Source of the DNA: an uncultured Thermoanaerobaculia bacterium
Lineage (GTDB): Bacteria > Acidobacteriota > Thermoanaerobaculia > Thermoanaerobaculales > Sulfomarinibacteraceae
Assembly (NCBI GenBank): GCA_964423595.1
Contig: CAYRFI010000006.1
Span: 8,458 to 72,457, forward strand
Direction of reading: 5' to 3'
DNA length: 64,000 bases
The translations under genes and the position numbers were made by a program. The first letter of the stretch is position 1; each line of letters starts with the position of its first letter. The notes under the pieces are model-generated. The model saw only the letters and a list, made by a program, of their open reading frames with translations, was not told the origin of the DNA and made no database searches. Below, piece by piece: positions 3,830-52,958 of this stretch.

Positions 3830-5241
3830 AAATCAAACAGATCACCACTATCTCTGCGTCCTTTCTCATGGTTCTCACCCTCTCCGCATGCGACGGATCC
3901 TCCGGCGACGCCGGGGGCCGCACCGACGGTGGTCGCCCGAACGCGATGGGCGACCCGATGGAGGTCGGCGCGCCCGCCGCGGCGGTGCCGGTGCGGGTGC
4001 AGCGCGTTCTTCGCCGATCCATCTCGCAGTACCTGCAGACCAACGGCACGCTCGAGGCCGAAAACGAGGTCGATATTGTCGCCCGCACCTCCGGCCCGGT
4101 GACCGAGATCCTGACTGAGGAAGGTCAGATGGTTCGCGCAGGTCAGCTGATGGCGCGCATCGATGACCGGGAGCCGAAGAACCAGGCCGCGATCGCGCGG
4201 GTCGCCCGCGACGAGGCGCAGCTCGCCTTCGACCGCACCCAGGCCTCGTGGAACGAAGGGCTGGTGAGTCGCGAGGCTTACGACAGCGCGATATCGAAGT
4301 TGGCCGCGGCGCAGGCGCAGCTAGAGAGCGCCGAGATCCAGCTCGCCTACACCGAGATCCGCGCTCCGTTCGACGCCCAGGTGGTGACGCGGGACATCAA
4401 GCTCGCACAGTACGTGACTTCCGGCGCGCGATTGTTTCGGATCTCAGACTTCACGCCCCTCCTGTGCCGGGTCGAGGTGCCCGAGAAGGACCTGCCACGA
4501 GTGCGGATCGGACAGACCGCCCACCTCGAGGTCGAGGCCTACCCTGGTCAGCAGTTCCCGGCCTCCGTCTCGCGGCTGCGGCCGACCGTCGACCCCGCCT
4601 CGGGCACCTTCACCGTCACCCTCGAGGTGGCTGCGCAGGGCAAGCTGCGACCCGGCATGTTCGCTTCGGTGTACCTGGAGACCGAGACCCGTGAAAACGT
4701 GCTCGCGATTCCGCGCGACGCGCTCGTACTCGATTCACTGGGCGACACGGTCTACGTCATGGTCGACGGCGTCGCCGAGCGGCGGGAGGTACGCCTCGGC
4801 CTGCGCGACGAAGACTCGGTGGAGGTCGTCGATGGGCTCGCGGGCGGTGAGCAGCTGATCGTGCTTGGCCAGGAAGGCCTCGCCGACGGCACGCCGGTGG
4901 AGGTCCTTGGCGATGCGCCGCCCGCCGCGTCCACCGTGGAGGCCGCGGGACCGCCGCCGGAGGCCATCGAGGCGATGCGGCAGCGGATGAAGGAGCGCGG
5001 GATGTCGGACGAGGAGATCGAGCAACGCCTGCAAGAGATGCGTGATGGTGGCGGCCGGGGGGGCGGCATGCGACAAGTGGGCGTGAGTGAGATACCGCCC
5101 TTCTTGGCGCAACGGATCAAAGAGGCGTCGCCCGAGGAGCTCGAAGGCATCAAGGAACGGATGAAGCAGTTCGGCCTTTCCGACGAACGCATCGAGGAGA
5201 TCATCAAGCAGATCCGCGAAAACGGCGGGGACGCGAATTGA
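3826..5241 (+). CDS. RND efflux periplasmic adaptor (MFP/HlyD family) lipoprotein with long charged C-terminal extension
   Basis: GTG 3826 overlaps the pump stop (GTGA). N-terminus VKIKQITTISASFLMVLTLSAC is a signal peptide plus lipobox. MFP motifs include coiled-coil AAAQAQLESAEIQLAYTEIRAPFDAQVV and PGMFASVYLE. The ORF-track start at 3571 lies inside the pump gene and is rejected. Confidence 0.9.
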   Translation: MKIKQITTISASFLMVLTLSACDGSSGDAGGRTDGGRPNAMGDPMEVGAPAAAVPVRVQRVLRRSISQYLQTNGTLEAENEVDIVARTSGPVTEILTEEGQMVRAGQLMARIDDREPKNQAAIARVARDEAQLAFDRTQASWNEGLVSREAYDSAISKLAAAQAQLESAEIQLAYTEIRAPFDAQVVTRDIKLAQYVTSGARLFRISDFTPLLCRVEVPEKDLPRVRIGQTAHLEVEAYPGQQFPASVSRLRPTVDPASGTFTVTLEVAAQGKLRPGMFASVYLETETRENVLAIPRDALVLDSLGDTVYVMVDGVAERREVRLGLRDEDSVEVVDGLAGGEQLIVLGQEGLADGTPVEVLGDAPPAASTVEAAGPPPEAIEAMRQRMKERGMSDEEIEQRLQEMRDGGGRGGGMRQVGVSEIPPFLAQRIKEASPEELEGIKERMKQFGLSDERIEEIIKQIRENGGDAN

Positions 5242-20144: not shown

Positions 20145-21254
20145 TCAGTTCGCGTAGAACTCCTCGATTGCGTGCACAACCTCTTCCTGCTCGCTCTCGG
20201 TCAACTCCGGAAACACTGGCAACGCCAGCACCTCTCGACTCGCCTCCTCGGCGACCGGGAATTCTCCCTGCTCGTGGCCGAGTCCCTCGAAGCACGGCTG
20301 AAGATGCAGAGGCAACGGATAGTAAACCGCCGCGCCGATGCCCCGATCCGCCAGAAATGCTCGCAACTCGTCCCGGCGCTGAACTCGCACGACGTATTGG
20401 TTGAAGGTGTGGCCGCGGCCGGAAACGGCCTCCGGCAGCTGCACCGTTTGCTCGAGACCCGCGTTGGCGAAGAGACGACGGTAGCGATCGGCGTTGGCGC
20501 GCCGCCCCTCGATCCACGCGCCAACATGCGGGAGCTTGACCCTGAGGATCGCCGCCTGCAGCGCATCGATACGGAAGTTCCCACCCACAACCGGGTGCTG
20601 GTAGGGGCCCGACTGACCGTGCATTCGCAGCTCGCGAAGGCTACGGTCAAGCTCGGCGTTGTCTGTTGTCACCAACCCACCGTCGCCAAAACAGCCCAGG
20701 TTTTTCGACGGAAAGAACGAAAACGCGCCCATGGCCCCGATCGAACCGACCTGGGCGCCATTGAAGTCCGCTCCCCAGGCCTGCGCGCAGTCCTCCACCA
20801 CCGGCACATCGCCCGCAACCTTCATGATCCGGTCCATCGCTGCCGCCTGACCAAAGAGATGGACCGGGATGATTGCGCGTGTCCGGTCGTTGATACTGAC
20901 ATGAAGGTGCTCCGGATCCATGCAGAAATCGACGGGATCGACATCGACAAAGACCGGGGTCGCGCCCAGGCGCGACACCACCCCGGCCGTCGCGAAGAAC
21001 GTAAAAGTCGGCAGGATCACCTCATCGCCGCGGCCAACGCCAAGCGCCATCAGAGCAACGAGCAGTGCGTCGGTGCCCGAGGTGACGCCAACGGCGTGTA
21101 ATGTTTCCAGCGCCACAGCCGATTCGCGCTCGAAAGCGTCGACCTCGGCGCCGAGGATGAATCGTTGTGAATCACAGACGCGATCGATGGCCTGGCGCAT
21201 CTCCTCACGCAGGGGTTCGTACTGTCGCGTCAGATCGAGCAGCGGCACGGGCAT
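20145..21254 (-). CDS. DegT/DnrJ/EryC1/StrS-family PLP-dependent sugar aminotransferase
   Basis: VPLLDLTRQYEPLREEM, GAEVDAFERE, FSFFPSKNLG (PLP-Lys region) and LALPVFPELT. ATG 21254 follows GGAGG at 8-nt spacing. Confidence 0.9.
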   Translation of the reverse strand: MPVPLLDLTRQYEPLREEMRQAIDRVCDSQRFILGAEVDAFERESAVALETLHAVGVTSGTDALLVALMALGVGRGDEVILPTFTFFATAGVVSRLGATPVFVDVDPVDFCMDPEHLHVSINDRTRAIIPVHLFGQAAAMDRIMKVAGDVPVVEDCAQAWGADFNGAQVGSIGAMGAFSFFPSKNLGCFGDGGLVTTDNAELDRSLRELRMHGQSGPYQHPVVGGNFRIDALQAAILRVKLPHVGAWIEGRRANADRYRRLFANAGLEQTVQLPEAVSGRGHTFNQYVVRVQRRDELRAFLADRGIGAAVYYPLPLHLQPCFEGLGHEQGEFPVAEEASREVLALPVFPELTESEQEEVVHAIEEFYAN

Positions 21255-21298
21255 TCCAGGCACCTCCAATGTCGTGAACGGGACATAGAGTACCTCGT

Positions 21299-21466: not shown

Positions 21467-22795
21467 ATGCACATCTGTGTTGTTGGTACCGGCTACGTCG
21501 GGCTCGTCACCGGAGCCTGTCTGGCCGATTTCGGCATCAACGTCACCTGCGTCGACAAGGACGAGGAGAAGATTGCCAAGCTCCTCGACGGCGAAATCCC
21601 AATCTACGAGCCCGGGCTCGACTCGTTGGTGGATAAGAACGCGAAAGCGGGACGTCTCCACTTCTCGACCGATCTCGCCCCGGCTATACAGCACGCCCTC
21701 GCTATCTTCATCGCGGTCGGCACCCCGCCGAAGGAAGACGGCTCTGCTGACCTCTCGTACGTCGTTCAGGTCGCAGAGGCTATTGCCGACAATCTCAACG
21801 GCTACAAGGTCGTGGTCACCAAATCCACGGTGCCAATCGGGACGGGGCAATTGATCGAGAAGATCATGACCGAACGAGGCAGCAGTGCCCATCCGTTTTC
21901 GGTCGTCTCCAACCCCGAATTCCTTCGTGAAGGGTCCGCGATCGCCGACTTCATGCGGCCCGACAGGGTCGTCATCGGTGCTCGCGACGCTCAGGCCGTG
22001 GCCATCATGAAGGACATTTACTCACCGCTCTACCTGATCGAAACCCCATTCGTGATCACAAACGTCGAATCTTCCGAGCTCATCAAGTACGCCTCGAACG
22101 CGTTCCTCGCGACCAAGATCACTTTCATCAATGAAGTCGCCGAGCTCTGCGACCGACTCGGCGCGGATGTCCATCACGTCGCCAAGGGAATGGGGCTCGA
22201 CAAACGCATCGGACCGAAATTTCTCCATCCGGGGCCGGGATACGGAGGCTCGTGCTTCCCAAAGGACACTCACGCGATGTCTGAGATCGCGCGCGAGGCC
22301 GGCCGCCCGTTCGAGATCGTTGACACGGTCATTGCGGTCAACGACCGGATCAAGGAACGGGCCGTCGAACGTGTCGAGGAGGCGATTGGCGAGAACCTCG
22401 AAGGCAAGACTGTGGCAGTACTCGGTCTCAGCTTCAAGCCAGAAACAGACGACATGCGCGAATCGTCCTCGATCCCGTTGGTCACGGCACTAGTTCAGGG
22501 CGGCGCAAAGGTCAAGGCATTTGACCCCGTGGCGATGGACAACGCACGCGCAATTCTGCCCCAGAGTGTGCAGTACTGCGAGGACGCCTACGACGCTGCC
22601 GACGGAGCCGATGCAATGATCATCGTCACTGAATGGAACCAGTTCCGTTCCCTTGACATGGAGCGCGTTCGTTCCTCGCTGAGACAGCCGGTGGTGGTCG
22701 ACCTCCGCAACCTATACGACCCGAAGCGGATGAAAGACCAGGGATTCCGGTACTCCAGCTTCGGCCGTGCTGCGAAAGACCTTCCGGGCGAGTAG
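21467..22795 (+). CDS. ugd: UDP-glucose 6-dehydrogenase
   Basis: MHICVVGTGYVGLVTGACLADFG, NPEFLREGSA, GGSCFPKD (catalytic Cys) and LGLSFKPETDDMRES. Confidence 0.95.
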   Translation: MHICVVGTGYVGLVTGACLADFGINVTCVDKDEEKIAKLLDGEIPIYEPGLDSLVDKNAKAGRLHFSTDLAPAIQHALAIFIAVGTPPKEDGSADLSYVVQVAEAIADNLNGYKVVVTKSTVPIGTGQLIEKIMTERGSSAHPFSVVSNPEFLREGSAIADFMRPDRVVIGARDAQAVAIMKDIYSPLYLIETPFVITNVESSELIKYASNAFLATKITFINEVAELCDRLGADVHHVAKGMGLDKRIGPKFLHPGPGYGGSCFPKDTHAMSEIAREAGRPFEIVDTVIAVNDRIKERAVERVEEAIGENLEGKTVAVLGLSFKPETDDMRESSSIPLVTALVQGGAKVKAFDPVAMDNARAILPQSVQYCEDAYDAADGADAMIIVTEWNQFRSLDMERVRSSLRQPVVVDLRNLYDPKRMKDQGFRYSSFGRAAKDLPGE

Positions 22796-42685: not shown

Positions 42686-42786
42686 CAGTGGAGGACTTGC
42701 CACAATCCAATTCGAAACATTCTGGCGCCATTTGACGGTCGTATCTCGGTCGGGTGACGCGGCCGCGAGAGGAAGTTGGGAGAGCC

Positions 42787-44010
42787 ATGAGCCGCACGAT
42801 TCTGCTAGCCGACGACAGCCTCACCATCCAAAAGGTCGTTGAGCTCACGTTTGCCGACACGGAGTACGAAGTCGTGGCGGTGTCGAACGGCGACGATCTC
42901 CTCCAGCGGCTCCCAGATGTCCAACCAGATCTCGTGATCTGTGACGTCATCATGCCCGGCCGGGACGGCTATGACGTGTGCCAGGAGATCAAATCGAGTT
43001 CGGAGTTCCTCCACCTTCCGGTCATTCTTTTGACCGGGACGTTCGAGCCATTTGATCGTGACCGGGCGATCGCAGTCGGCTGTTCCGAGATCATTACCAA
43101 GCCTTTCGAGGCGAAGAAGCTGGTCGACGCTGTGGAACGCCTCGCGGCGACACCAGCCGCACCTCCTCCATCAGCCGCCGACACGCAATCAATCGGTCCC
43201 GAGTACCTCTCCACGCCGGATACCGATAGCCAGCTTGACGACACCGAGGTCAGTCAGGAGTTCGGGCCCGGGAAAGCAATCACCGAGGATATGGCTGGCG
43301 CTGGTTCGTTTGACGAAATCGCGGTCGACGAAGCACCTGCCGGGCAGGATGTGGAACCGCCACAAGACGAGTTCGACCTCGACGACGACATCGGGGGTCT
43401 GGAACTGGACACGATGGATCTCCCCGATGTTGAGGCCCCGCTCGAAATCGGTGAGATTGCCGAGTCCACTACCGATCCCGCCAGTACCCTGGCCGCCGAG
43501 GATTTCGCCGCGATCGGGGAAACCGAAGAGGTCGGAACCATCGAAGGCAGCGGGGAACCCGTGCTGGTTGAAGAGGCCTTCATCGATGTCGGCGGGGAGG
43601 ACGAGCCGTTCCCGACCGACAAGAGAGATATCGAGGTGCCGCCACCCGAAAAGGCGGACGCCGATAGATCGCTGACGACGCCCATCGACGTCGCCGCGGT
43701 GATGGCCGACTACCAGCCCGAGCTTGAACCCGCGATGAACGACGAGGACGATGGATCGCCCACCAACGCGAAAGATGACGCCGACACGCAGGACTTCGGC
43801 GAAAAACCCCCGGCGCAGGCGGCACCTGGGGAGGCCAACAGAATCGGGCTCAGCGATGACGATGTGGATCGGATCGCGAGGCGCCTGCTGGAGCTGGCCT
43901 CCGACCGTATCGAGCACATTGCCTGGGACGTCATCCCGGATATGGCTGAGGTCGTCGTACGCGAACGGATGCGAGAGCTCGAGGCCAACGCGGAAACCGA
44001 GCCATCGTAG
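42787..44010 (+). CDS. Response regulator (CheY-like receiver) with ~240-aa acidic linker and conserved C-terminal helix
   Basis: Receiver: ILLADDSLTIQKVV...DLVICDVIMPGRDGYDVCQEIK...ITKPF. This is followed by a D/E/P-rich low-complexity region and the terminal RIARRLLELASDRIEHIAWDVIPDMAEVVVRERMRELE. Confidence 0.85.
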   Translation: MSRTILLADDSLTIQKVVELTFADTEYEVVAVSNGDDLLQRLPDVQPDLVICDVIMPGRDGYDVCQEIKSSSEFLHLPVILLTGTFEPFDRDRAIAVGCSEIITKPFEAKKLVDAVERLAATPAAPPPSAADTQSIGPEYLSTPDTDSQLDDTEVSQEFGPGKAITEDMAGAGSFDEIAVDEAPAGQDVEPPQDEFDLDDDIGGLELDTMDLPDVEAPLEIGEIAESTTDPASTLAAEDFAAIGETEEVGTIEGSGEPVLVEEAFIDVGGEDEPFPTDKRDIEVPPPEKADADRSLTTPIDVAAVMADYQPELEPAMNDEDDGSPTNAKDDADTQDFGEKPPAQAAPGEANRIGLSDDDVDRIARRLLELASDRIEHIAWDVIPDMAEVVVRERMRELEANAETEPS

Positions 44011-44885: not shown

Positions 44886-44988
44886 CGCCCGCCCATCCGG
44901 CTTCGCCTACCGGCTCCGTCCTGCTGACTTCGCCGTGACAAGTCGGCTACGCCGGGACAATCCCGTCCAGATACAAGATCCAAGATGG
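44886..44988. repeat. Left half of a split H7 element (C-run core + CAAGATN arm)
   Basis: CGCCCGCCCATCCGG starts right after the birA stop. The arm CAGATAC-AAGATCC-AAGATGG (44968-44988) is complementary to the arm at 45804-45831, about 0.8 kb away. Confidence 0.6.
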
Positions 44989-45120
44989 TGTCCCGTTCTG
45001 AAATAGATTGGCACACGAGTTCATCTACCCGTTCCGGTCGACAGTGCACCGGCTCTCGGGATTCCAGGTTCGTGGCCACGTCGGATGCCGGCGCCGGACG
45101 CTCGACGCACGACGGGTCGC

Positions 45121-45411
45121 TCACGATCTCGGATGGAGCAACCGCCATGTCATGACGCGGACCTCATCGAACAGCCGCAACGTTTTGCTTGCACGAGCAA
45201 CATCGACCACACCTGCATGGGCGAGGAGACGCAGGTGGCAGTCGACCTCGTTCGCCGAGCCGTACCCGATACGCCAGTGGTGTATCCGATTTCGTCCCGA
45301 TCGACCATGGCCCTCCGAGAGGTTCGCCGGGACCGAGCTCGCCGAACGAATCACTTGGTCGGCCAGGCACTTGAAAGGAGCCGGAACCCGCGTCACGAGG
45401 GTGATCGCCAT
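45121..45411 (-). CDS. Four-helix-bundle protein (23S rRNA intervening-sequence protein / Avd-like family)
   Basis: 96 aa. ADQVIRSASSVPANLSEGHGRSGRNRIHHWRIGYGSANEVDCHLRLL matches the family signature (S-I/V-P-x-N-I/L-x-E-G...GS-x-E) from memory. Confidence 0.8.
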   Translation of the reverse strand: MAITLVTRVPAPFKCLADQVIRSASSVPANLSEGHGRSGRNRIHHWRIGYGSANEVDCHLRLLAHAGVVDVARASKTLRLFDEVRVMTWRLLHPRS

Positions 45412-45467
45412 GGTCGCTGCCTGGAGGGCTTTGCGGCGGGCGATGAGGGTGCTGTCGGGGAGCGCAT

Positions 45468-45634
45468 CGAGCCGTGATCACCTCCGGGTCGTTCATACTC
45501 TCCCCAAGCTGGTGAGGCGGCCGGTGTCAAGGGTCGCGAAGCGACCGGCCACAGGCCGGCGGGCCCTTGATACCGGCCGGCTCGCCAGCTATTGCCCGCA
45601 TATTCATGAACGACCCGGAGGTGATCACGGCTCG
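45468..45634. repeat. 167-nt hairpin with perfect 29-bp terminal inverted repeat
   Basis: CGAGCCGTGATCACCTCCGGGTCGTTCAT (45468-45496) is the exact reverse complement of 45606-45634. The 109-nt interior has further pairing (GGCCGGTGTCAAGGG / CCCTTGATACCGGCC, 14/15; GGTCGC-GAA-GCGACC). Confidence 0.8.
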
Positions 45635-45787
45635 CTCCAAACCAGGCGGCCCGCTCACCGGCGCTGCCTCGTGCCGCTGCTGCCTGTCACTGCCGCTGAT
45701 CATCTCCGCCCTCGATAACCGACGCAGAGGCGATAGCTCCCCTGCGAGAACCGACAACTTCTCGCCAGAACGCGACAACTCTGATCC

Positions 45788-45831
45788 TTGGGTGGGAGGG
45801 CGGCCTTGCATCTTGTATCTTGCATCTGCTC
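45788..45831. repeat. Right half of the split H7 element (G-run core + arm)
   Basis: Core TTGGGTGGGAGGGCGG, then CCTTGCA-TCTTGTA-TCTTGCA-TCTGCTC. The reverse complement CAGATGCAAGATACAAGATGCAAGG matches the 44968-44988 arm. Confidence 0.6.
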
Positions 45832-45906
45832 TCCCCCGCTCCGATATGATTCTTATTGAACGATCACGTTCAACGGAGTTCATCCACCGCCGGTCAGGAG
45901 CTTGTT

Positions 45907-46851
45907 TTGTCGGATTCGGTAGCGCTGATTTCCCTGGTCTTCGGTAGCTCTCTGGCATCGTCTTTGTTTTTTGTGCTGTCGGCCCGGATCCTCCGACAAG
46001 CTGCCGAGAAACACCCCCCGAACGCGACAGGCATGGTCGCCGTCACCCATCTCAGCGCTGCTCTCTTCCTGCTGCCGTTCCTTCCGGCGGCAGGTATCAG
46101 CTCGCTGTCAGAGGTCCGGACGATGGCCTCCCCGTTCGTCCTCGTTCTCATCCTGCTGACGGCCGTCCTCCATCTTGCCGCGAGGCTCTTCCATTTCAAA
46201 GCCCTCAGCTTGACCGACGTGAGCCTCGTCAGCCCATTCGCCGCACTCACTCCGGTGCTGACGATCGTGACGGGGTGGGTCATTCTCGCGGAGCGTCCAA
46301 ACGCCGTCGAGCTCGTTGGCATACTGATCGTCGTCGTCTCCCTGTTGGGGCTCACCGAGGTCAAAAAGGTGTTCCAGGCGCGATCCGCGTCGAGCGCCCC
46401 TGCTGAAAAGAACAGCACCAACCTCGGCCTGTGGTTCGCGTTCCTCTCGACAGTTCCGCCGGCCTTCAAAATTGCCATCCAGAAAAAAGCCATCCTGCTT
46501 TCGAATCCGTTGACATATGCGTTGATCATGCTCTTTTTGACTGGAACGGGTGCGATGTTGATCTACGTCGCCCGCAGCCGCGGCCGCGACTTCCGAACTC
46601 AATTCCCCCCTCGCAGGCTGCGAACCCTTTTCGTCATCTCGGGTCTGCTGGCCCTGAACACACTCCTGTTCTGTGCGGCTCTGACTCTCGGACTGGCGGC
46701 TGGAATCAGCGCCATGGCCCGCATCAGCATCGTGCTTCAAGGGATCCTGGCATATTGGATCGCAGGACAAAAAACCAATTTTCGCCGCAGAATGTGGTGG
46801 GGTGTCGTGATTTTCTTCGGCTCCGTCGTCATCGGGATCGCCATCCCGTGA
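45907..46851 (+). CDS. EamA/DMT-superfamily transporter
   Basis: Ten hydrophobic segments in two EamA-like halves. TTG 45907 follows AGGAG at 6 nt. TTG 45856 is the longest in-frame alternative. Confidence 0.8.
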   Translation: MSDSVALISLVFGSSLASSLFFVLSARILRQAAEKHPPNATGMVAVTHLSAALFLLPFLPAAGISSLSEVRTMASPFVLVLILLTAVLHLAARLFHFKALSLTDVSLVSPFAALTPVLTIVTGWVILAERPNAVELVGILIVVVSLLGLTEVKKVFQARSASSAPAEKNSTNLGLWFAFLSTVPPAFKIAIQKKAILLSNPLTYALIMLFLTGTGAMLIYVARSRGRDFRTQFPPRRLRTLFVISGLLALNTLLFCAALTLGLAAGISAMARISIVLQGILAYWIAGQKTNFRRRMWWGVVIFFGSVVIGIAIP

Positions 46852-46908: not shown

Positions 46909-47910
46909 TCAGTCATGCACTGACTCGTCCGTCTCGAAGCCTGGGAACTCGACCCCGTTCTCGGAACGATTCCCCAGAAAAACCTTCAGGATCCCCTTTT
47001 TGACCATTTCTCGCCGGAACTCGCCCTCAAAATCTACTGGATGTAAATCTGTCGGCTCGAACACTTCATCTTCGTAATACCGGTCCCACCTGCCGTCTGC
47101 ATCCGCCCCAAAGCCGAAAACATCGACCTCGTCACAGACGTGCACCGCGACCATCAGGGCAATGAAACCGGTGGAGGGAAACTGTCCCTGCTCCTCCATC
47201 CAGTCCTCGTAAAGATATTTCACGAACTCCGGATGGATGATGCGCACTCGCCTGGGTTCCCAGCGAAGATCGTCTTCCACGAGAGAGAGTATCCAATCGA
47301 AAAGATCCTCGGTGTGCAGCGTCATGGGATTTATCAGGAGGAAGGCCCGCCGATCAGCCATGCCCCCTCCAAAGTCCGTGGGCCATGTTACGTGGTGGGT
47401 CGTCTTGTCCCCGACATCGGACTGAAAGTCAGCCGTGGGCGCTCGATTCACCCGAAAGACAACGTTGTGTGCATCGATCAGATTTCCGTAACCCGACCCG
47501 AGCAGGTTGCGGGACGCGCCAACAACCGCACAGATCCGCCTCGTGCGGGGACGCAAAAAGACCGGGGAGCGTCCCGAGATCCGTGAGAACATCCGCTGAG
47601 CGGCCGCCCGAGTCAAGCCTTTACGCTCCACGCGGGAAGCCCACCAATCGAACACTTCCGGCGAAACCCAGCCTTCACCGGGCTCCCAGAAGATATCCAC
47701 GCCTTCCCTGAACGATTCTGGGAATACCGTTTCGAGCCTCTGCTGCAAGGGACCCCTTATGGAGGTTTTCAGATCGCGGAATTCCGTCGGATTCGGCTCG
47801 TTCAACTCCTGGACGTCTGCTCGCTGCTGCCCAAGGACGATACATATCAAGACAGCCGCCGACACCAGCCCACTGCGACGGGGACCGTGGGATCTCATCA
47901 CCGGGGTCAT
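46909..47910 (-). CDS. GT29 (eukaryotic-type, ST3Gal-like) sialyltransferase homolog B, type-II membrane anchored
   Basis: N-terminal MTPVMRSHGPRRSGLVSAAVLICIVLG anchor. Sialyl motif L is CAVVGASRNLLGSGYGNLIDAHNVVFRVNRAPTADFQSDVGDKTTHH. Motif S is PSTGFIALMVAVHVCDEVDVFGFGAD. RYYED and HPVDFE correspond to motifs III and VS. GAGGGA lies 6-7 nt before the ATG. Confidence 0.85.
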   Translation of the reverse strand: MTPVMRSHGPRRSGLVSAAVLICIVLGQQRADVQELNEPNPTEFRDLKTSIRGPLQQRLETVFPESFREGVDIFWEPGEGWVSPEVFDWWASRVERKGLTRAAAQRMFSRISGRSPVFLRPRTRRICAVVGASRNLLGSGYGNLIDAHNVVFRVNRAPTADFQSDVGDKTTHHVTWPTDFGGGMADRRAFLLINPMTLHTEDLFDWILSLVEDDLRWEPRRVRIIHPEFVKYLYEDWMEEQGQFPSTGFIALMVAVHVCDEVDVFGFGADADGRWDRYYEDEVFEPTDLHPVDFEGEFRREMVKKGILKVFLGNRSENGVEFPGFETDESVHD

Positions 47911-47932
47911 GTCATTCCCTCGACCACGCGTG

Positions 47933-48955
47933 TCAGTCCCGTGAAGACGCTTCGGCGCCGGAATGAGGGTCCGGGCGAATCCCCCGATAGACCTTGAGGA
48001 TCCCGTTTGCTTCCATCTCCTCGAGGAGCCGGGCCTCGATGCGGGCCGGATGGAACTGCGATACGTCCTCTGGAACGTCTTCGTAGTAGCGGTCCCACCT
48101 GCCGGAGGCGTCCGCGCCGAATCCAAATACGTCGACCTCTTCGCAGACATTCAGTGCGATCATCAGAGTAATGAAGCCGGTTGAGGGATAGGTCATCCAC
48201 CCTTTCGTCCAGTTCTCGTGCAGGTACATCACGAACTCCGGATGGATGATGCGCACGCGCAGGGGATCCCAGTGAATTTCCTCGTCCACGAGGTAGAGGA
48301 TCCGGTCGAAGACATCCTTGGTGTTGGCGGTGATCGGAGTCATCAGGAGGTAAGCCTCCCTGTCGTACTGCCACTCCTCGAGATCCCGCGGCCACATCAC
48401 GTGGTGGGTCGTCTTTTCTCCGACATCGGAATCATAATCATCGGTCGGCGCACGATTGATGCGAAACACGACGTCGTGAGCATCGATCAGTTCTCCGTAA
48501 TGCGATCCGAGCAGGTTGCGGGACGCGCCGACGACCGCGCAGATCTGTCTCTTGTCGGGTGTCGAGAAGACCGACGAGTCATCCGAAATGCACGAAAACA
48601 TCCGCTCAGCGGCCTCCGGTGTCACGCCATCGATGTCGCCCTCTTCTAAGTGGGCAGCCCACCATTCATACACCTCTTGCGAGATCCAGCCGTCATGCGG
48701 ACCCCAGAAGATGTCGACTCCGTTCTTGAAAGAGTTTGGGAAGGTCGTTGCAAGTCTCTGTTGCAAGGGCCCTCTGACGGAGGTTGAGGTGCGGTCGTTT
48801 TCTCCTTTCAGATAATCATGGCTGGCTTCCGGAATCTCGTACTCAGCATCCGGATGTTCCACTACCCGTCGCGACATGAGAAAGACTGAAATCGCGACGA
48901 CCGCTGCCAGAAGCATTACGTACCAGAGATTTCTGGGTCTCATGTTGCTGGCCAT
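47933..48955 (-). CDS. GT29 (eukaryotic-type, ST3Gal-like) sialyltransferase homolog A, type-II membrane anchored
   Basis: Anchor is MASNMRPRNLWYVMLLAAVVAISVFLM. Motif L is CAVVGASRNLLGSHYGELIDAHDVVFRINRAPTDDYDSDVGEKTTHH. Motif S is PSTGFITLMIALNVCEEVDVFGFGAD. RYYED and HPARIE follow. It is colinear with paralog B. Start is 48955 or 48943. Confidence 0.85.
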   Translation of the reverse strand: MASNMRPRNLWYVMLLAAVVAISVFLMSRRVVEHPDAEYEIPEASHDYLKGENDRTSTSVRGPLQQRLATTFPNSFKNGVDIFWGPHDGWISQEVYEWWAAHLEEGDIDGVTPEAAERMFSCISDDSSVFSTPDKRQICAVVGASRNLLGSHYGELIDAHDVVFRINRAPTDDYDSDVGEKTTHHVMWPRDLEEWQYDREAYLLMTPITANTKDVFDRILYLVDEEIHWDPLRVRIIHPEFVMYLHENWTKGWMTYPSTGFITLMIALNVCEEVDVFGFGADASGRWDRYYEDVPEDVSQFHPARIEARLLEEMEANGILKVYRGIRPDPHSGAEASSRD

Positions 48956-49025
48956 TGTACATTGCGCACAGTGTCGTCCCGAATTGGGTCGCCGACGGAG
49001 GCGCCTGCCCGAGCGGCGTTTTGCT

Positions 49026-50012
49026 CTATCCCTCTGGACGGTTTTGATCGGCTCCGCGCTCGAGTTCGTAAGAAACACACTGCCCACAGACCGTCCGGGC
49101 CACCTCCCTGCGGAGATGGTCGGCTCGCAGTTCGCAAAACTTCGGCGAGTGCCAGGCGTCCATGAAGGTCATCTTCTTCAGATCCCCCATGTCGAATCTC
49201 CCGTCGTGGTCGAAGCAGCACGCGCTCAGCCTCCCGTCCCAGGTCACGTGGCCTTCTGTGAACAGCGCCCAGCAAGGGACCGGTGCCCGCATCTTGTCGT
49301 ATCTGCCGCGGTTACCACCGGTGAACACCCATCGAGTACCGTCTCGCTGCTCGATATGGGCCGCCTGGGAGTAGAGTGGGAGCGCATAGACCTCATCGGA
49401 AAAATCTCCGATCTCCTCGACGACTCGGGCCATCTTCTGACGCTGTCGCTCACCCTCGAACATGATGTATGAAGCGTACAGCCCGCAAGGGTACCCTCCC
49501 GCCTCCCGCACCCGCCACGCGTCCTTGATGTTGGAGACGATCTCGAAGTATTTTGCCTCGGGCTTCCTCGTGATGGCGGCGAAATGCTCCGGGTCAGAGT
49601 AGTTGAGCGAGAACTTGAGGCTGTCGAGGCCGGCCTCCATGCAGGCCTCGACCTTTGCCGGAGTCGAAAGCGAGCCGTTGGTGGTCAAGAAGACGTAGGG
49701 AAAACCGAGATCCTTGGCGTACCTGATCGCAGCCGGAAGCCACGGAACCAAAAAGCTCTCGCCGAGATAGAAGAGGCCGAGCTCCTCGACTCCCTCCCGG
49801 AGCAAATCGGCCACAAGCGCGTCGAAGAAGACGCGGTCGATCTGCCCGACCTCTCGCAGATGCTTGGATCTCGCGCAGAATTGACAAGAAAAGTTGCACA
49901 GGGCGGTGAGCTCGATCTTGACGGATTTTGGGCATGGCGGCGTCTCTGAGAGATACTCTTCCTTGATCTCCGTGATGTTGTCGATCCGCTCGGTGATCGA
50001 TTCTCGTGGCAT
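49026..50012 (-). CDS. Radical SAM enzyme with Cys-rich (SPASM/twitch-like) C-terminal domain
   Basis: CNFSCQFC (CxxxCxxC) near the N-terminus, the GGE-like LFYLGESF, and C-terminal cysteines PCWALF...SACCFDHDG...CGQC. Same strand as, and 70 nt upstream of, the GT29 genes. Confidence 0.85.
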   Translation of the reverse strand: MPRESITERIDNITEIKEEYLSETPPCPKSVKIELTALCNFSCQFCARSKHLREVGQIDRVFFDALVADLLREGVEELGLFYLGESFLVPWLPAAIRYAKDLGFPYVFLTTNGSLSTPAKVEACMEAGLDSLKFSLNYSDPEHFAAITRKPEAKYFEIVSNIKDAWRVREAGGYPCGLYASYIMFEGERQRQKMARVVEEIGDFSDEVYALPLYSQAAHIEQRDGTRWVFTGGNRGRYDKMRAPVPCWALFTEGHVTWDGRLSACCFDHDGRFDMGDLKKMTFMDAWHSPKFCELRADHLRREVARTVCGQCVSYELERGADQNRPEG

Positions 50013-50142
50013 CGGAAAGCCCAAACGGTCCGCCCTTCGTTGCTTCTTTTCGACTCCGCGCGCCAGACCCCCCTCCAATTATTTTAACCCCCCCAACGGG
50101 CCATACGGCACGAAGATATTGAATCTACATAGCTTTGACAAA

Positions 50143-50177
50143 GAGATACAAGATGCAAAATCCAAGATCCAATGCTC
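50143..50177. repeat. Heptad-word array (AAGATNC type), left part of a composite element
   Basis: GAGATAC-AAGATGC-AAAATCC-AAGATCC-AATGCTC. This is the same word family as the arms at 44968 and 45804. Confidence 0.55.
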
Positions 50178-50400: not shown

Positions 50401-52173
50401 CTAGGGCACCGCCTGTAAGCGTCCGAGGAACTTCGCCGGTGGCTCGAAACCGGTGATCCGGAAGACCTCCTCACCGCCCGAAAAGACGATCACGGTCGGC
50501 ACGCCCAGCACCCGGTAGGTGGTGGCCAGCTTCTGGTTCTCCCCGCTGCTCCGCGTCAAATCGACCTTGAAGCGTGAGTAGTTCTCGAGCAGGGCGCTCA
50601 CTTCGGGCGCCGGAAAGGTCTTCTCGTCGAGCTCGCGGCACGGTGCGCACCAATCTGCGTAGAAATCGAGAATGACCCGCTCTCCCCCGGTGACAGCGGC
50701 TTTGACCGCGCCAGCATCATATGGCTGCCAGGCCAGGTGTTCGCCCGACTCGCCCACCGTTGTTCCGCGAAGGAAAACCACCGGCGCCATGACCACTCCG
50801 GCCACCAGTGTGGCGGCGCTCAGGACCCGCATCACACGATCGATCGTCGGCTGCTCGTGACCTGTGCGGTCAATGACCAGGAGGTAGAGCGCACCGAAAA
50901 CCAGGACCGCCGACATCAACCAGCGCCCCGAGTCGCCGGGCATCAGCGGCGCCGCGAAGTATGCAGCCATCGCGACCAGGATGACGCCGAAAACCCGTCT
51001 CACCCCGATCATCCACATGCCGGAGGCCGGCAGCTTGTTGACCGTTCCAGTAAAGGTGCCCAGGATCAGGTACGGCAGACCGAGACCCAGAGCGAGGGTG
51101 AAAAAAAGAACAAAACCCAGGAACGCATCCCCTCGCTGGCCGACATAGGTGAGGAGGCCGACCACGAATGGACCGATGCACGGTGCCGCGACAAAGCCCA
51201 TCACCAGGCCCATGATGAGGGCGCCGAAAACGCCACTCCTTCCACCTGACGCGCGTTGTGCCCAGGCCGGTACCCGCAGCTCCCACAGCCCGAACATCGA
51301 GGTCGAGAGCGACAGCAGGACGACCACGATCAGGCCGACAACCCAGGGGCTCTGCAGGGCGCTACCGAAGATCGCGCCGCTGAGTGCGGCGAGAACGCCG
51401 AGCACCGAATATGTGAAGGCGATTCCCATGACATAGGCGAGGGCAAGGGGGAAGGCGCTGCCTTCGCGATCCTTCGTCTGCTGAGTGAAGAAGCCAACCG
51501 TGATCGGGATGAGCGGGAAGACGCACGGTGTCAGATTCAGCGCAAGCCCGGCCAGAAACACCCCGATCAAGAGCAGCGGCAGGGATTTCGAGCCGAGGTC
51601 CGAAGGCCTTGGAGAATCGCCAGACCCGGAAGGCCGCACGGAAAGCTCCTTGAAGAACTCCTCGTCCGTGGGTCTTGACGAGGTGCCGGGGGGCGCCACC
51701 GTCACATCGATGCCGGTCCGAACCTCCTCCGGAGGTAGGCACTGGGTGTTGTTGCAGGCCTGAGCGGTGACTGCCACGCGCAGGCGATGATCGCCGACCG
51801 CGGTCCCGGGAACGACCAGGCCGGCGAGGATGACCGCGCGGCCCTCCCACACCTCGATCGGCGTGTCGGAGAATTCGAACTCGAGGGCCTGACCATCCGG
51901 AAAACTGACCACCGGCACCGGCCAGCCTTCGGGCAGGATGAACTCGACGGTCGTCGGCAGCGAAAACTCGTCACCAGGGTCATCGGTGTTGACGTGCCAC
52001 CCGCGCTTGATGGTCAGGGTAACCGCCAGCCGCACCTCGTCTCCCGCAACCAGTGGGGTCCGATCAGTCAGCAGCCGAACCTTGAACACCGGCTCGGTAT
52101 CCAAGCCCTGTCCGGCGGCCGGGCCGGCAGCAAAGATCGTCAACAACATCAATATCAGGATCGATCTCTTCAT
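50401..52173 (-). CDS. dsbD: Thiol:disulfide interchange protein DsbD-type (N-domain + CcdA-like TM core + thioredoxin domain)
   Basis: MKRSILILMLLTIFAAGPAAG signal. The TM core carries LTPCVFPLIP and AAPCIGPF cysteines. The C-terminal thioredoxin fold has FYADWCAPCRELD. Confidence 0.9.
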   Translation of the reverse strand: MKRSILILMLLTIFAAGPAAGQGLDTEPVFKVRLLTDRTPLVAGDEVRLAVTLTIKRGWHVNTDDPGDEFSLPTTVEFILPEGWPVPVVSFPDGQALEFEFSDTPIEVWEGRAVILAGLVVPGTAVGDHRLRVAVTAQACNNTQCLPPEEVRTGIDVTVAPPGTSSRPTDEEFFKELSVRPSGSGDSPRPSDLGSKSLPLLLIGVFLAGLALNLTPCVFPLIPITVGFFTQQTKDREGSAFPLALAYVMGIAFTYSVLGVLAALSGAIFGSALQSPWVVGLIVVVLLSLSTSMFGLWELRVPAWAQRASGGRSGVFGALIMGLVMGFVAAPCIGPFVVGLLTYVGQRGDAFLGFVLFFTLALGLGLPYLILGTFTGTVNKLPASGMWMIGVRRVFGVILVAMAAYFAAPLMPGDSGRWLMSAVLVFGALYLLVIDRTGHEQPTIDRVMRVLSAATLVAGVVMAPVVFLRGTTVGESGEHLAWQPYDAGAVKAAVTGGERVILDFYADWCAPCRELDEKTFPAPEVSALLENYSRFKVDLTRSSGENQKLATTYRVLGVPTVIVFSGGEEVFRITGFEPPAKFLGRLQAVP

Positions 52174-52199
52174 CGTCTCCCTCGTCTTCGGGACAACCG

Positions 52200-52958
52200 T
52201 CAGTCGCCTGTCAACTCTCGAACCAGATCCGGTGCGAAGCGCCGAACAAGCTCCCGAATCTCGTTCGGGTATCGCTCCCAGCTCCTCTTTACGAGATCGG
52301 GCCGTCTGGTTACCGTGATCTCGACCGATCGTTCCAGCCGCCAGCGCCGGATCGCCTCGTGGTTGCCGGAGAGTAACACCTCGGGCACCGTTACGCCCTC
52401 GACCTCGGGTGGGCGGGTAAAGCACGGGTAATCGAGGAGCCCTTCGCCGAAGCTGTCAGAGCTCACCGATTCCGGGTCCCCGACAACCCCTGGCACCAAC
52501 CGCGAAACCACCTCGATGAGCGCCATCGCAGCGACCTCACCACCACCGAGTATGTAGTTCCCCACGGACACTTCTTCGGCCCCACTGATCTCGAATATGC
52601 GTTCGTCGAAACCCTCGTACCGACCGCACACCAACAAGAGGCTCGGTTCTTGAGCCAGCTCCTGGGCCAACGACTGATCGAGCAACCGCCCTCGTGGGCC
52701 GAGGATGATCGTCCGCGTGCCGCTCTGCCGCGAGACCATGTCGCGGATGGCCGCCAGCACCGCGGGCGCCTGCAGGACCATTCCGGCGCCGCCGCCATAG
52801 GGCTCGTCGTCGATCTGCCGCCACTTGTTGTCGGCCCAGTCGCGGAGATCGTGGGCCTCGACACCAACCACGCCTCGTTCCACGGCCTTTCCGAGCACAC
52901 CGACGGTGCGAAACGGCTCGAAAAGCTGCGGGAAAATCGTCAAAACGTCAAAATGCAT
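52200..52958 (-). CDS. trmD: tRNA (guanine37-N1)-methyltransferase
   Basis: MHFDVLTIFPQLFE, DDEPYGGGAGMVL, CGRYEGFDERI and SVGNYILGGGE. The tracked N-extension to 53030 lies in a repeat element. Confidence 0.95.
   Translation of the reverse strand: MHFDVLTIFPQLFEPFRTVGVLGKAVERGVVGVEAHDLRDWADNKWRQIDDEPYGGGAGMVLQAPAVLAAIRDMVSRQSGTRTIILGPRGRLLDQSLAQELAQEPSLLLVCGRYEGFDERIFEISGAEEVSVGNYILGGGEVAAMALIEVVSRLVPGVVGDPESVSSDSFGEGLLDYPCFTRPPEVEGVTVPEVLLSGNHEAIRRWRLERSVEITVTRRPDLVKRSWERYPNEIRELVRRFAPDLVRELTGD

Follow-up and report, generated by a model that had tools for sequence, protein, structure and literature searches.

The closest described systems differ in family, host or compartment. In the animal Golgi, sialyltransferases of the ST3Gal type belong to family GT29 and consist of an anchor, a stem and a catalytic domain that faces away from the cytoplasm, and they are partnered by a transporter from the DMT superfamily. 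Plant GT29-like proteins are also eukaryotic Golgi proteins, implicated in the synthesis of RG-II (Kdo/Dha). The bacterial sialyltransferases of families GT38, GT42, GT52 and GT80 (for example Lst, Cst-II and LsgB) are unrelated to GT29 and have no export signals, and we know of no dedicated transporter partner reported for them. All characterised bacterial sialyltransferases act in the cytoplasm, including Lst after its re-examination, and Lst and LsgB accept CMP-Kdo too (PMC8092323). Bacterial GT29 proteins were reported in 2018 by Petit et al. (PMC5811610) from Alpha-, Gamma- and Epsilonproteobacteria, mostly marine; they have the sialyl motifs, form an outgroup to eukaryotic GT29 and are described in that paper as lacking a TM helix and the Cys pair. 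The statement of the first-pass annotation that GT29 is essentially eukaryotic or viral is therefore outdated, and NCBI and JGI annotations already call the Thermoanaerobaculales proteins studied here GT29 or ST3Gal.

The window, i.e. the whole stretch of 64,000 nucleotides that was analysed, carries a tandem pair of GT29 paralogues and a radical-SAM/SPASM (rSAM) gene, all on the minus strand. The carriers of the locus are free-living, marine-sediment Acidobacteriota, Ca. Sulfomarinibacter(aceae). In transcription order the rSAM gene comes first (ATG 50012 to TAG 49026, 328 aa), followed after 70 nt by GT29-A (ATG 48955 to TGA 47933, 340 aa) and after a further 22 nt by GT29-B (ATG 47910 to TGA 46909, 333 aa), which is preceded by GAGGGA. 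A gene for an EamA/DMT transporter (45856..46851, plus strand) is convergent with GT29-B across a spacer of 57 nt, and dsbD (50401..52425, minus strand, Pfam DsbD_TM E=1.4e-49) flanks the other end. These genes, the gaps of 70 and 22 nt and the GAGGGA were all found where the first-pass annotation had placed them, and Pfam agrees with its naming of both flanks. It had also called the GT29 genes resident, bacterial and operon-like with the rSAM gene, which holds: GC and GC3 of the locus resemble those of the neighbouring genes, and over 20 independent metagenome contigs show identical gene order, which rules out a chimera.

Both GT29 proteins match Pfam PF00777 (GT29-A E=1.8e-48, GT29-B E=2.5e-47, 162-166 bits where the cut-off is 23) and are 60.5% identical to each other. 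The best phmmer match in the PDB is pig ST3Gal-I (2wnb, E=6.8e-40), to which the two are about 30-40% identical, with ST6GalNAc2 (2e-16), ST8Sia3 (2.5e-12) and then ST6Gal1 further down. The AlphaFold2 model of GT29-A (pLDDT 80.4) has a helix at residues 8-30, and Foldseek ranks ST3Gal-I first for it (E=5.5e-20, TM 0.76-0.80). By these comparisons of sequence and model, GT29-A and GT29-B are bona fide, ST3Gal-like members of GT29, as had been proposed. The earlier reading of motifs L, S and VS and of the L/S Cys pair is likewise confirmed in both proteins. These CMP-sugar-binding motifs, with the catalytic His and Glu, are invariant or nearly so, and just two Cys are conserved across 118 family members, C139 of motif L and C271 of motif S. 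Motif III is present as RYYE, but Arg replaces the His of the animal enzymes, a change that the sequence comparison shows to be conservative; the canonical WDHYY is retained in remoter bacterial GT29s with the same EamA partner. GT29-A consists of an N-terminal anchor, an acidic disordered stem and the catalytic domain. Both copies are under purifying selection, with dN/dS against orthologues of 0.22-0.32 for GT29-A and 0.19-0.27 for GT29-B. In contrast to the set of Petit et al., the GT29s described here have a TM segment and the Cys pair, are nearest to ST3Gal, are linked to a DMT transporter and occur in Acidobacteriota and other uncultured lineages.

The likeness to ST3Gal had led to the proposal of an inter-domain transfer used for host-glycan mimicry. 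Outside the bacterial family, the best-matching named proteins are indeed deuterostome ST3Gal1/2 (fish, Styela, amphioxus) at 30-40% identity, and the type-II layout and Cys pair look eukaryotic. However, we consider a recent transfer from a eukaryote very improbable, because the family is large and old. There are 316 metagenomic homologues at E<=1e-5, the best 120 of which share 50-100% identity with the query, all at E<1e-95; the A/B duplication is older than the clade, the paralogue dS is saturated, and the locus lies in deep synteny beside ffh-rpsP-rimM-trmD. In a neighbour-joining tree the clade of these GT29s is monophyletic in 200/200 bootstraps, and a sister relation to animal ST3Gal1/2 is never convincing (3/200). 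The best grouping, itself weak at 40/200, is with a trio of metagenomic proteins (P0172, P0196, P0158), of which at least P0158 is clearly bacterial by its lipobox. Lipoprotein signals and DMT fusions in related bacterial GT29s are bacterial inventions, GC and GC3 are native, and the free-living habit of the carriers in sediment speaks against mimicry of host glycans. In Ca. Sulfomarinibacteraceae the locus is vertically inherited and deeply syntenic.

The EamA gene had been taken as a mere bacterial flank, but no other gene accompanies GT29 more consistently across lineages. A GT29(-GT29)-EamA core is retained in 20 well-flanked Sulfomarinibacter-type loci, with the rSAM gene upstream wherever the contig reaches that far, and no well-flanked close relative has GT29 without EamA. 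In locus L001, rSAM-GT29-GT29-EamA lies between leuS and a phytase-like gene; these flanks are entirely different, which argues that the four genes moved as one block. The gene for DsbD, a periplasmic thiol-disulfide electron transporter, is found upstream in L002-L007 and is absent there in L001; it is a syntenic neighbour only, outside the mobile core. Among loci that are 30-40% identical, EamA adjoins GT29 in L013/L036 and L038; in L037 it lies about 850 nt downstream of GT29. EamA is fused N-terminal to GT29 in three lineages (P0171 in L011, P0229 in L012 and an ORF in L035), the fusions being 29-31% identical to each other. No EamA gene was found within the flanks examined of L010, L014 and L060. 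GT29 is shown by these loci to be genetically coupled to EamA/DMT transporters across distant bacterial lineages, three fusions included.

The location of the GT29 domains was predicted from hand-read signal sequences and the positive-inside rule. GT29-A starts with a strongly hydrophobic signal anchor (residues about 8-30), while the N-terminal region of GT29-B is shorter, less hydrophobic and more like a signal peptide. A hydrophobic N-terminal segment at H>1.6 is found in 92% of 118 family members, with a mean net charge of +1.4 in the N-flank and -0.95 in the C-flank, in line with the anchor earlier ascribed to both proteins. In B-type orthologues the hydrophobic region terminates in sites like AxA before Q, in many cases PxxAAA before Q. 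Remote bacterial relatives have lipoboxes (P0158 LMAAGC, P0186 FFAGC, P0184 LTSC) or ordinary signal peptides (P0215, P0204, P0163); P0172, the gene of which is frameshifted, keeps the Cys pair in a gene call without a signal. The stand-alone GT29s are thereby shown, as far as their N-termini can be read, to carry export signals in the form of anchors, cleavable peptides or lipoboxes. We infer that the catalytic domains are outside the cytoplasmic membrane, where the disulfide between motifs L and S could form, and GT29-B is probably released by signal peptidase.

The transporter points in the same direction. EamA has 10 TM helices. Most orthologues start 3 residues before TM1, so that the true start of the gene may lie near 45904. 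Loops 1-2, 3-4, 5-6, 7-8 and 9-10 have 17.5 K+R against 3.4 in the others, and the termini consist of about 3 uncharged residues. The bias is repeated in two of the EamA-GT29 fusions (14 against 4 and 13 against 3 K+R). EamA is predicted to be N-out/C-out with both termini periplasmic, and TM10 would therefore exit on the periplasmic side, from which the fused GT29 continues. Canonical 10-TM DMT proteins (YddG, NSTs) have both termini in the cytoplasm, which would place a C-terminal GT29 inside the cell. This orientation, the cytoplasmic action of all characterised bacterial sialyltransferases, Lst included, and the precedent of the DMT relatives ArnE/F, which flip lipid-linked sugars, would fit cytoplasmic GT29 domains tethered to the inner leaflet by the N-helix or the transporter, with EamA exporting or flipping the product or being unrelated. 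We regard such an arrangement as unlikely: the K+R bias predicts the opposite orientation, the positive N-tails, AxA-type sites and lipoboxes direct the mature domain outward, and the only Cys conserved family-wide are the two of the disulfide.

The rSAM protein matches PF04055 and PF13186 above the cut-offs, has a CX3CX2C motif (CNFSCQFC) and is twitch-like; no NCBIfam equivalog was matched. It could be an obligatory third component, either making an unusual donor sugar as a BtrN-like radical dehydrogenase or maturing the GT29s before export. It lies 70 nt upstream on the same strand, and where the upstream flank is long enough nearly all Sulfomarinibacter-type loci have an orthologue (71-98% identical, tblastn) at that position. 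It also moves with the block into the different surroundings of L001, BtrN, a sugar-type dehydrogenase, is its best match among solved structures, and radical-SAM genes unrelated to it are found near GT29 in L011, L014 and L037. Nevertheless, this role seems doubtful. A frameshift splits the L001 copy, the similarity to BtrN is weak (E=6e-6), and the radical-SAM genes near distant GT29s are non-orthologous (27% identity, core only). EamA-GT29 occurs without rSAM in L012, L013, L035 and L038. The family comprises 4678 proteins at E<=1e-5, with the next relatives 57-63% identical; in the loci examined, relatives at about 60% identity are stand-alone genes in Alphaproteobacteria and other bacteria, and no GT29 or EamA was found within 10 kb of them (three loci in two genomes). 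The operon partnership proposed earlier is thus conserved within this lineage, but the radical-SAM link to GT29 is lineage-specific and weak and is no general part of the module.

In the control region upstream of the rSAM-GT29-GT29 unit (50113..50172, minus strand), a heptad array (TTGGATC TTGGATT TTGCATC TTGTATC) abuts a promoter-like TTGTCA-17-TATCTT element, and L003 and L005 have arrays of the same type between dsbD and rSAM. A second array (45806..45828, plus strand; TTGCATC TTGTATC TTGCATC) lies 28 nt upstream of the EamA start, oriented to its gene as the first is to rSAM, and a 15-nt core is 100% identical to 50158..50144 on the minus strand. The window has six matches, compared with 0.5 expected.

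The cargo of the transporter was approached by sequence and fold. In the EamA sequence PF00892 is the only Pfam match (E=2.7e-16), with none to the NST and TPT families. The subfamily has 57 homologues at E<=4e-28 (52-92% identical), and the sole further match is 24% identical. Many of the 57 lie on contigs that equal GT29-bearing contigs in length, in keeping with the coupling to GT29. The AlphaFold2 model has the DMT fold with LicB as top match, the mouse and maize CMP-sialic-acid transporters (6oh3, 6i1r) at ranks 2-5, and YddG, TPT and SLC35B1 matching about as well as the CMP-sialic-acid transporter; the modelled fold does not discriminate between them. LicB (7B0K/7PAF) is also the sole PDB sequence match (E=0.007, 14% identity). 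It is likewise a DMT protein feeding an envelope-decoration pathway, but it imports a small cation, choline, into the cytoplasm and has no glycosyltransferase link or fusion. EamA and the Golgi carrier of CMP-sialic acid belong to one superfamily, and we propose EamA as a candidate exporter or antiporter of the donor, a CMP-sugar.

As the first-pass annotation had stated, the window has no neuA/B/C or CMP-sugar gene: no NeuA, NeuB, NeuC or KdsB-type family was matched by Pfam in about 45 of the 52 ORFs, and probing the whole window with NeuB and KdsB by tblastn found nothing. Neither a CMP-sugar synthetase nor a NulO synthase was found in the window or in the EamA-GT29 loci examined; in the related GT29 locus L060 a NeuB-family synthase is two genes off. 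Plant GT29-like proteins occur in organisms without classical sialic acid, so a non-sialic CMP-ulosonic donor is possible, and no evidence of a specific relatedness to the plant proteins was found. The lack of nearby donor-synthesis genes, the LicB match in place of an NST and the Arg of motif III would suit periplasmic GT29s that do not depend on an exported CMP-sugar, acting on scavenged donors, in reverse, as trans-glycosidases or in glycan binding only, while EamA moves some other small molecule, for instance the acceptor, a sugar acid in free form, or CMP alone. This seems improbable to us, as motifs L, S and VS with the catalytic residues are conserved, remoter members with WDHYY share the EamA partner, one relative is beside a NeuB-family gene, and a transporter fusion is most simply a substrate hand-over.

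We give somewhat better than even chances to a periplasmic, Golgi-like glycan-capping module, in which the GT29s are supplied with a CMP-activated nonulosonic or ulosonic acid that the DMT transporter exports. The donor (sialic, legionaminic or pseudaminic acid, Kdn or Kdo) would be made in the cytoplasm and carried by EamA to the periplasmic face, probably in exchange for CMP, like SLC35A1 in the Golgi. GT29-A, held by its anchor, and GT29-B, probably freed, would add the acidic sugar to an envelope glycoconjugate (LPS core, capsule, S-layer or other glycoprotein). In other lineages the fusion would allow direct hand-over in a leaky compartment, and in this lineage the co-transcribed rSAM may tailor donor or acceptor. 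Some observations count against the module. Free CMP-sugars would be wasteful in a porin-leaky periplasm, and CMP-Kdo is very labile (PMC8092323). Further points are that no gene for donor synthesis was found in the window or in the EamA-GT29 loci examined, that the choline importer LicB outscores the CMP-sialic-acid transporters, that motif III is without its usual His in this clade, that L010, L014 and L060 are without EamA in the flanks examined, and that the signal-less P0172 also has the Cys pair.

The module would share with the animal Golgi system the family, fold, motifs L, S and VS, the Cys pair, the predicted layout and the DMT partner. It differs in its diderm host, in the predicted periplasmic compartment, in the lipoprotein or transporter-fused form of some GT29s, and in an EamA-type transporter of predicted reverse orientation. 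With the GT38, GT42, GT52 and GT80 enzymes it would share the presumed transfer of a CMP-acidic sugar to a glycan terminus. The new point is the pairing and fusion of an EamA transporter with GT29; if the proposed module is true, it would cap glycans with sugars in a Golgi-like way, outside the cytoplasm of a bacterium.

The open reading frames were re-read, and both the arrangement described in the first-pass annotation, two GT29 genes with a radical-SAM/SPASM gene upstream, and its coordinates and spacings are accurate. The radical-SAM/SPASM gene (rSAM, ATG 50012 to TAG 49026, minus strand) is the first of three closely spaced genes. GT29-A (ATG 48955 to TGA 47933, minus strand, 340 aa) starts 70 nt after it, and GT29-B (ATG 47910 to TGA 46909, minus strand, 333 aa), preceded by GAGGGA, starts 22 nt after GT29-A. 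A DMT-superfamily transporter gene, EamA (45856-46851, plus strand), converges on GT29-B across a spacer of 57 nt, and dsbD (52425-50401, minus strand) is located upstream of the rSAM-GT29-GT29 unit. The gene content of the window is ordinary bacterial housekeeping (acrB twice, argG, argH, pth, L25, infC, queG, ffh, proS, trmD, rimM and others), GC3 is uniform across it, and both GC and GC3 of the GT29 locus are native. Given these bacterial neighbours, the native composition and an identical gene order that recurs on many contigs, we reject a chimeric assembly or contamination, and the GT29 genes are resident in a bacterium, as first proposed.

Both proteins match the Pfam profile PF00777 with 162 and 166 bits, well above the curated cut-off of 23 (E about 1e-47 to 1e-48), over profile positions 17/33 to 272. 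The best solved relative by sequence is pig ST3Gal-I (2wnb, E=6.8e-40), with an alignment that reaches into the stem region, while ST6GalNAc2, ST8Sia3 and ST6Gal1 are far behind. In the AlphaFold2 model of GT29-A (pLDDT 80.4), a disordered acidic linker joins an N-terminal helix (residues 8-30) to a catalytic domain with the GT-A-variant fold of the solved GT29 enzymes. All 30 Foldseek hits at E<=0.001 are GT29 structures, and the model superposes on ST3Gal-I as the first match (E=5.5e-20, TM 0.76-0.80).

The sialyl motifs were tested as patterns. Motif L (C-x-V-V-G-N/A-S-x-x-L ... D-V-G-x-K-T-T) is present with its conserved cysteine as CAVVGASRNLLGS...DVGEKTTHH; C139 is conserved at 99%, and V141, V142, G143, S145, N147 and L148 are invariant (30 sequences). 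Motif S (P-S-T-G ... C-D/E-x-V-x-V/L-F/Y-G-F-G) is present as PSTGFITLMIALNVCEEVDVFGFGAD, also with its conserved cysteine, and P257, S258, G260, C271, G278, F279 and G280 are invariant. Motif VS (H-x4-E, with the catalytic His) reads HPARIE in GT29-A and HPVDFE in GT29-B; the conservation of H302 is 90% or more, and E307 does not vary. Across 118 aligned family members these three motifs are essentially invariant, and C139 and C271 are the only conserved cysteines. Motif III, tested as (H/y)-Y-(Y/F/W)-(E/D), reads W-D-R-Y-Y-E: Y290, Y291 and the Glu are kept, and an Arg, nearly invariant in the Sulfomarinibacter clade (the close relatives of the window GT29s), stands at the position of the animal His. 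The distant EamA-linked bacterial GT29s retain W-D-H-Y-Y, and the motif III loop is of low confidence in the GT29-A model (pLDDT<50 at 281-292). The two paralogues are 60.5% identical and each is under purifying selection relative to its own orthologues (dN/dS 0.19-0.32). The ST3Gal-like identity proposed earlier thus holds: by profile, motifs and predicted fold the window proteins are true GT29 members, for which transfer from CMP-Neu5Ac is a prediction.

A protein search gave 316 homologues at E<=1e-5. The best 120 of the 316 all have E below 1e-95 and all come from metagenomes or MAGs; one of them is labelled 'GT29 [Thermoanaerobaculales bacterium]' at NCBI, and many carry the JGI label 'beta-galactoside alpha-2,3-sialyltransferase'. 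In a scan of one genome per species, matches were found only in Ca. Sulfomarinibacteraceae / Ca. Sulfomarinibacter MAGs (three loci in two MAGs, one MAG having two of the loci), a pattern-limited result that underestimates the taxonomic spread. The carriers are marine-sediment Acidobacteriota, and the paper describing Ca. Sulfomarinibacter makes no mention of sialylation. The neighbourhoods of several homologues share the gene order of the window for about 20 kb, namely ffh-rpsP-KH-rimM-trmD-dsbD-rSAM-GT29-GT29-(EamA)-(birA-like)-(response regulator)-... The metagenomes were scanned with a 10-sequence alignment as the query. In a library clustered at 50% identity, the family consists of one full-length representative (513 bits) and a few fragments, and the next scores are about 160 bits; the named proteins at this level are fish, tunicate and amphioxus ST3Gal1/2, found together with many unnamed metagenomic proteins and one protist transcript. 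One homologue, P0128, on a 126-kb JGI contig from an unidentified AT-rich organism, is a K/N-rich protein of 471 aa with two complete tandem GT29 domains.

The catalytic domains were placed in an NJ tree (135 sequences, 197 columns, 200 bootstraps; no ST6/ST8 outgroups, plant or proteobacterial reference set), in which the Sulfomarinibacter clade is monophyletic in 200/200 replicates. It lies outside a 44-tip deuterostome ST3Gal1/2 group (itself supported by 53/200) and joins animal sequences in 3/200; the tree therefore does not support a recent metazoan origin, and the host-glycan mimicry suggested by the first-pass annotation is not borne out as the outcome of a recent inter-domain transfer. 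Metagenomic partners are commoner than animal ones but weak, the best grouping being P0172+P0196+P0158 at 40/200, where P0158 is bacterial since it carries a lipobox. Bootstrap support at the base of this NJ tree, including that for a sister of the Sulfomarinibacter clade, is low.

Bacterial GT29s were already known, having been reported by Petit et al. 2018 (PMC5811610). By the description in that paper, their proteins have neither a TM domain nor the L/S cysteines, whereas the window proteins have both and are therefore a different kind of bacterial GT29. The family as such is known, and what is of interest here is the conserved, sometimes fused DMT partner and the evidence for export.

To compare neighbourhoods, the window EamA, rSAM and GT29 proteins were searched by tblastn against 56 of the retrieved homologue loci (metagenome and MAG contigs). 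A core of GT29(-GT29)-EamA is found in 20 Sulfomarinibacter-type loci (L001-L009, L015, L019-L022, L024, L027, L028, L031-L033), with rSAM upstream in every such locus whose contig extends far enough. The number of GT29 copies per locus varies from one (L009, L027) to four in tandem (L025, positions 2-2773, on a single 2.8-kb metagenome contig). In L001 the rSAM-GT29-GT29-EamA genes are found between leuS and a phytase-like gene, and given these different flanks the four genes have moved as a block. DsbD was considered as part of the module and rejected, as neither L001 nor the distant loci contain it.

The association with EamA extends to the distant loci, whose GT29s are only 30-40% identical: an EamA homologue adjoins GT29 in L013/L036 and L038 and lies about 850 nt downstream in L037. 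In three further loci transporter and enzyme are fused, as P0171 in L011 (574 aa) and P0229 in L012 (545 aa, followed by a second GT29), both with Pfam EamA and GT29 matches, and as a 560-aa ORF in L035 identified by tblastn with the window EamA and GT29. The three fusions are mutually only 29-31% identical, and their transporter halves align end to end with the window EamA. The fused GT29 domain of L035 is similar to the stand-alone GT29 of L013, so both fusion and separation have occurred. The EamA subfamily comprises 57 homologues at E<=4e-28 (52-92% identical), the sole other match being 24% identical, and many of them are on contigs equal in size to GT29-bearing contigs. No EamA was found within the retrieved flanks of L010, L014, L060 and several probably eukaryotic GT29 contigs. 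Downstream of the fusion in L011, in the region 2544-4476, there are a 73-aa ORF, a Crp-family regulator and a non-orthologous radical-SAM/SPASM gene (27% identity over the core).

The other candidate partner is the radical-SAM enzyme highlighted by the first-pass annotation. The window protein has a CX3CX2C motif (CNFSCQFC) and a C-terminal SPASM/twitch auxiliary-cluster domain, and matches PF04055 (47 bits) and PF13186 (48.5 bits) above their cut-offs; no NCBIfam equivalog reaches its cut-off, and the best PDB match is BtrN, weak and over both domains (E=6e-6). Throughout the Sulfomarinibacter lineage GT29 is preceded by an orthologue of this gene (tblastn identity 71-98%). The next homologues, at 57-63% identity, are part of a family with 4678 members at E<=1e-5 (Rhodobacteraceae, Rhodospirillales and others); those at three loci in two genomes are stand-alone genes, with no GT29 or EamA within 10 kb. 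Where a radical-SAM gene is found near a distant GT29, it is not an orthologue of the window gene. A universal partnership is therefore rejected, and we treat rSAM as a lineage-specific operon member outside the conserved module: the proposed link holds as an operon neighbourhood within the Sulfomarinibacter lineage and is weak otherwise, as the homologues at those three loci stand alone. By gene neighbourhood, the consistent partner of GT29 is the EamA transporter and not the radical-SAM enzyme. In L001 (8988-9967, equal to 8805-9784 of L008; Ca. Sulfomarinibacteraceae MAG CAVTEP01), rSAM is split over two frames and the gene call is without the CX3CX2C part, either as a pseudogene or by a long-read assembly error.

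The intergenic regions contain tandem TTGNATC heptads (2-4 copies), often followed by CYGGGYGG. In the window the repeat has six matches against 0.5 expected, confined to three sites. One array of 3-4 copies is located just upstream of a promoter-like site of the rSAM-GT29-GT29 unit (50172..50144, minus strand), a second 28 nt upstream of EamA (45806-45828, plus strand) and a third at 44969-44986 (minus strand). The first two share an identical 15-nt core and have the same orientation relative to their respective genes. The arrays may have a role in co-regulation. Similar arrays are found in the dsbD-rSAM spacer of L003 and L005 and in other intergenic regions (L003 7827-7854; L005 7729-7820 and 15888-16030; L006 about 16000; L027 4867-4930). 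The repeat is a lineage-specific family and may be a regulatory or REP-like element.

The segment of about 850 nt between the birA-like gene and EamA (44969-45820) has inverted heptad arrays at its ends and contains an ORF of the 23S-rRNA-intervening-sequence family (45121-45411, minus strand; Pfam E=9e-14) and a perfect 29-nt inverted repeat (45468-45496 / 45606-45634), each arm of which starts a MNDPEVITAR ORF. The same spacer is only about 200-350 nt in L002-L006, so the segment looks like an insertion. Two genes from EamA, and syntenic in L002-L007, a gene at 42754-44010 (plus strand) encodes a response-regulator receiver domain followed by about 290 highly acidic low-complexity residues, with no recognisable output domain.

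The EamA structure was predicted from an alignment without locus-derived rows. The AlphaFold2 model (pLDDT 79) has a 10-TM DMT fold and matches LicB, the CMP-sialic-acid transporters 6oh3 and 6i1r, SLC35B1, TPT, YddG and Vrg4, all with probability 1.0. LicB is the best match, 6oh3 and 6i1r are at ranks 2-5 and the other DMT structures score alike, so the fold does not single out an NST. By sequence, Pfam gives only PF00892 (EamA) and a weak TMEM234 hit, placing the protein outside NST/TPT, and a profile search against PDB returns only LicB (E=0.007). We infer nucleotide-sugar transport, in exchange for a nucleoside monophosphate, solely from the linkage to and fusion with GT29.

Ten helices are seen in both the EamA family alignment and the model. 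The mean K+R count is 17.5 in loops 1-2, 3-4, 5-6, 7-8 and 9-10 versus 3.4 in the loops between these. Each terminus is about three residues long and uncharged, and the same bias is found in two fusions (14 v 4 and 13 v 3). By the positive-inside rule the termini are therefore predicted to be periplasmic, and in the fusions TM10 would replace the anchor of GT29 itself and deliver the enzyme to the periplasm. Among the stand-alone GT29s, 92% have an N-terminal hydrophobic segment, with a net charge of +1.4 in the N-flank and -0.95 in the C-flank. Anchors are long and very hydrophobic in the A-type proteins, whose B-type counterparts in many cases have a shorter hydrophobic region ending in a PxxAAA|Q-type site, and the distant bacterial GT29s have lipoboxes (LMAAGC, FFAGC, LTSC) or typical signal peptides. 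The signals were read from the sequences by hand, and the topology is that predicted by the positive-inside rule. Four export devices (signal anchor, cleavable signal peptide, lipobox and fusion to a C-out transporter) thus appear to converge on an extracytoplasmic catalytic domain, which the retained structural disulfide pair would fit.

In the Golgi, the donor is supplied by SLC35A1, a DMT-superfamily CMP-sialic-acid/CMP antiporter. An extracytoplasmic enzyme that uses a CMP-sugar needs its donor delivered, and since the partner here is a DMT protein we propose EamA as the CMP-sugar exporter. The exported donor would be a nonulosonic or ulosonic acid activated with CMP, probably exchanged against CMP, and GT29-A (anchored) and GT29-B (probably soluble) would cap an envelope glycoconjugate. 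The conserved or fused DMT partner and the signs of export point to periplasmic glycosylation that depends on nucleotide sugars.

As to the donor itself, the earlier remark that the window holds no CMP-sugar genes agrees with our searches. No donor-synthesis gene was found when about 45 of the 52 ORFs of the window were scanned with Pfam, nor in the supplements of the Sulfomarinibacter paper, and tblastn of the window and all 60 loci, using NeuB from L060 and an approximate KdsB sequence as probes, gave no NeuB- or KdsB-like gene except in L060. There (L060 2054-5873), in the only GT29 locus among the 60 with a nonulosonic-acid synthase, a NeuB-family gene is two genes from GT29, which points to nonulosonic acids as the donor. 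The NeuB-family protein has 674 aa and an additional N-terminal domain, whose GKGPS motif recalls Maf/Cst-type sialyltransferases; nearby there are also an inositol-monophosphatase-family gene and a Glyphos_transf gene. The GT29 gene of this locus (P0172) has its N-terminal part in another frame, by frameshift or long-read error. The only nucleotide-sugar-modifying genes found in the window are a divergent pair 26 kb from the GT29 genes, a DegT/DnrJ/EryC1 sugar aminotransferase (20145-21269, minus strand) and a UDP-glucose/GDP-mannose-dehydrogenase-family enzyme (21467-22795, plus strand), which are not specific to a CMP-sugar pathway.

According to textbook bacterial glycobiology, nucleotide sugars do not leave the cytoplasm, and glycosylation in the periplasm is carried out by GT-C enzymes with lipid-linked donors. 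This rule would be broken by a DMT-GT29 pair that is conserved, in some cases fused, and has its catalytic domains exported. Our literature search found no described bacterial DMT-GT29 or periplasmic sialyltransferase system, and the arrangement, if true, would be without precedent. Tentatively, and as a reading that falls somewhat short of being probable, we suggest that EamA would be the first nucleotide-sugar transporter known from a bacterium, and its GT29 partners the first Leloir-type (CMP-sugar-dependent) glycosyltransferases known from a periplasm. Together they would be the prokaryotic equivalent of the Golgi unit of 'transporter plus lumenal sialyltransferase', widespread in uncultured bacteria, repeatedly fused, and possibly the source (or an ancient recipient) of eukaryotic ST3Gal-type sialylation. 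As the fused version unites transporter and enzyme in one polypeptide, it offers a simple, testable model of lumenal glycosylation.

The system also bears on the origin of eukaryotic sialylation, as GT29s of the window type have an anchor, the disulfide pair and a transporter of the NST superfamily, while the bacterial GT29s described so far are without the first two. Enzymes of the ST3Gal type that naturally fold in the periplasm with a disulfide bond could aid glyco-engineering, in which the expression of animal sialyltransferases in E. coli is difficult (the subject of PMC4864186). For the abundant Acidobacteriota of sediments, acidic capping sugars could affect the interactions with phages, grazers and minerals.
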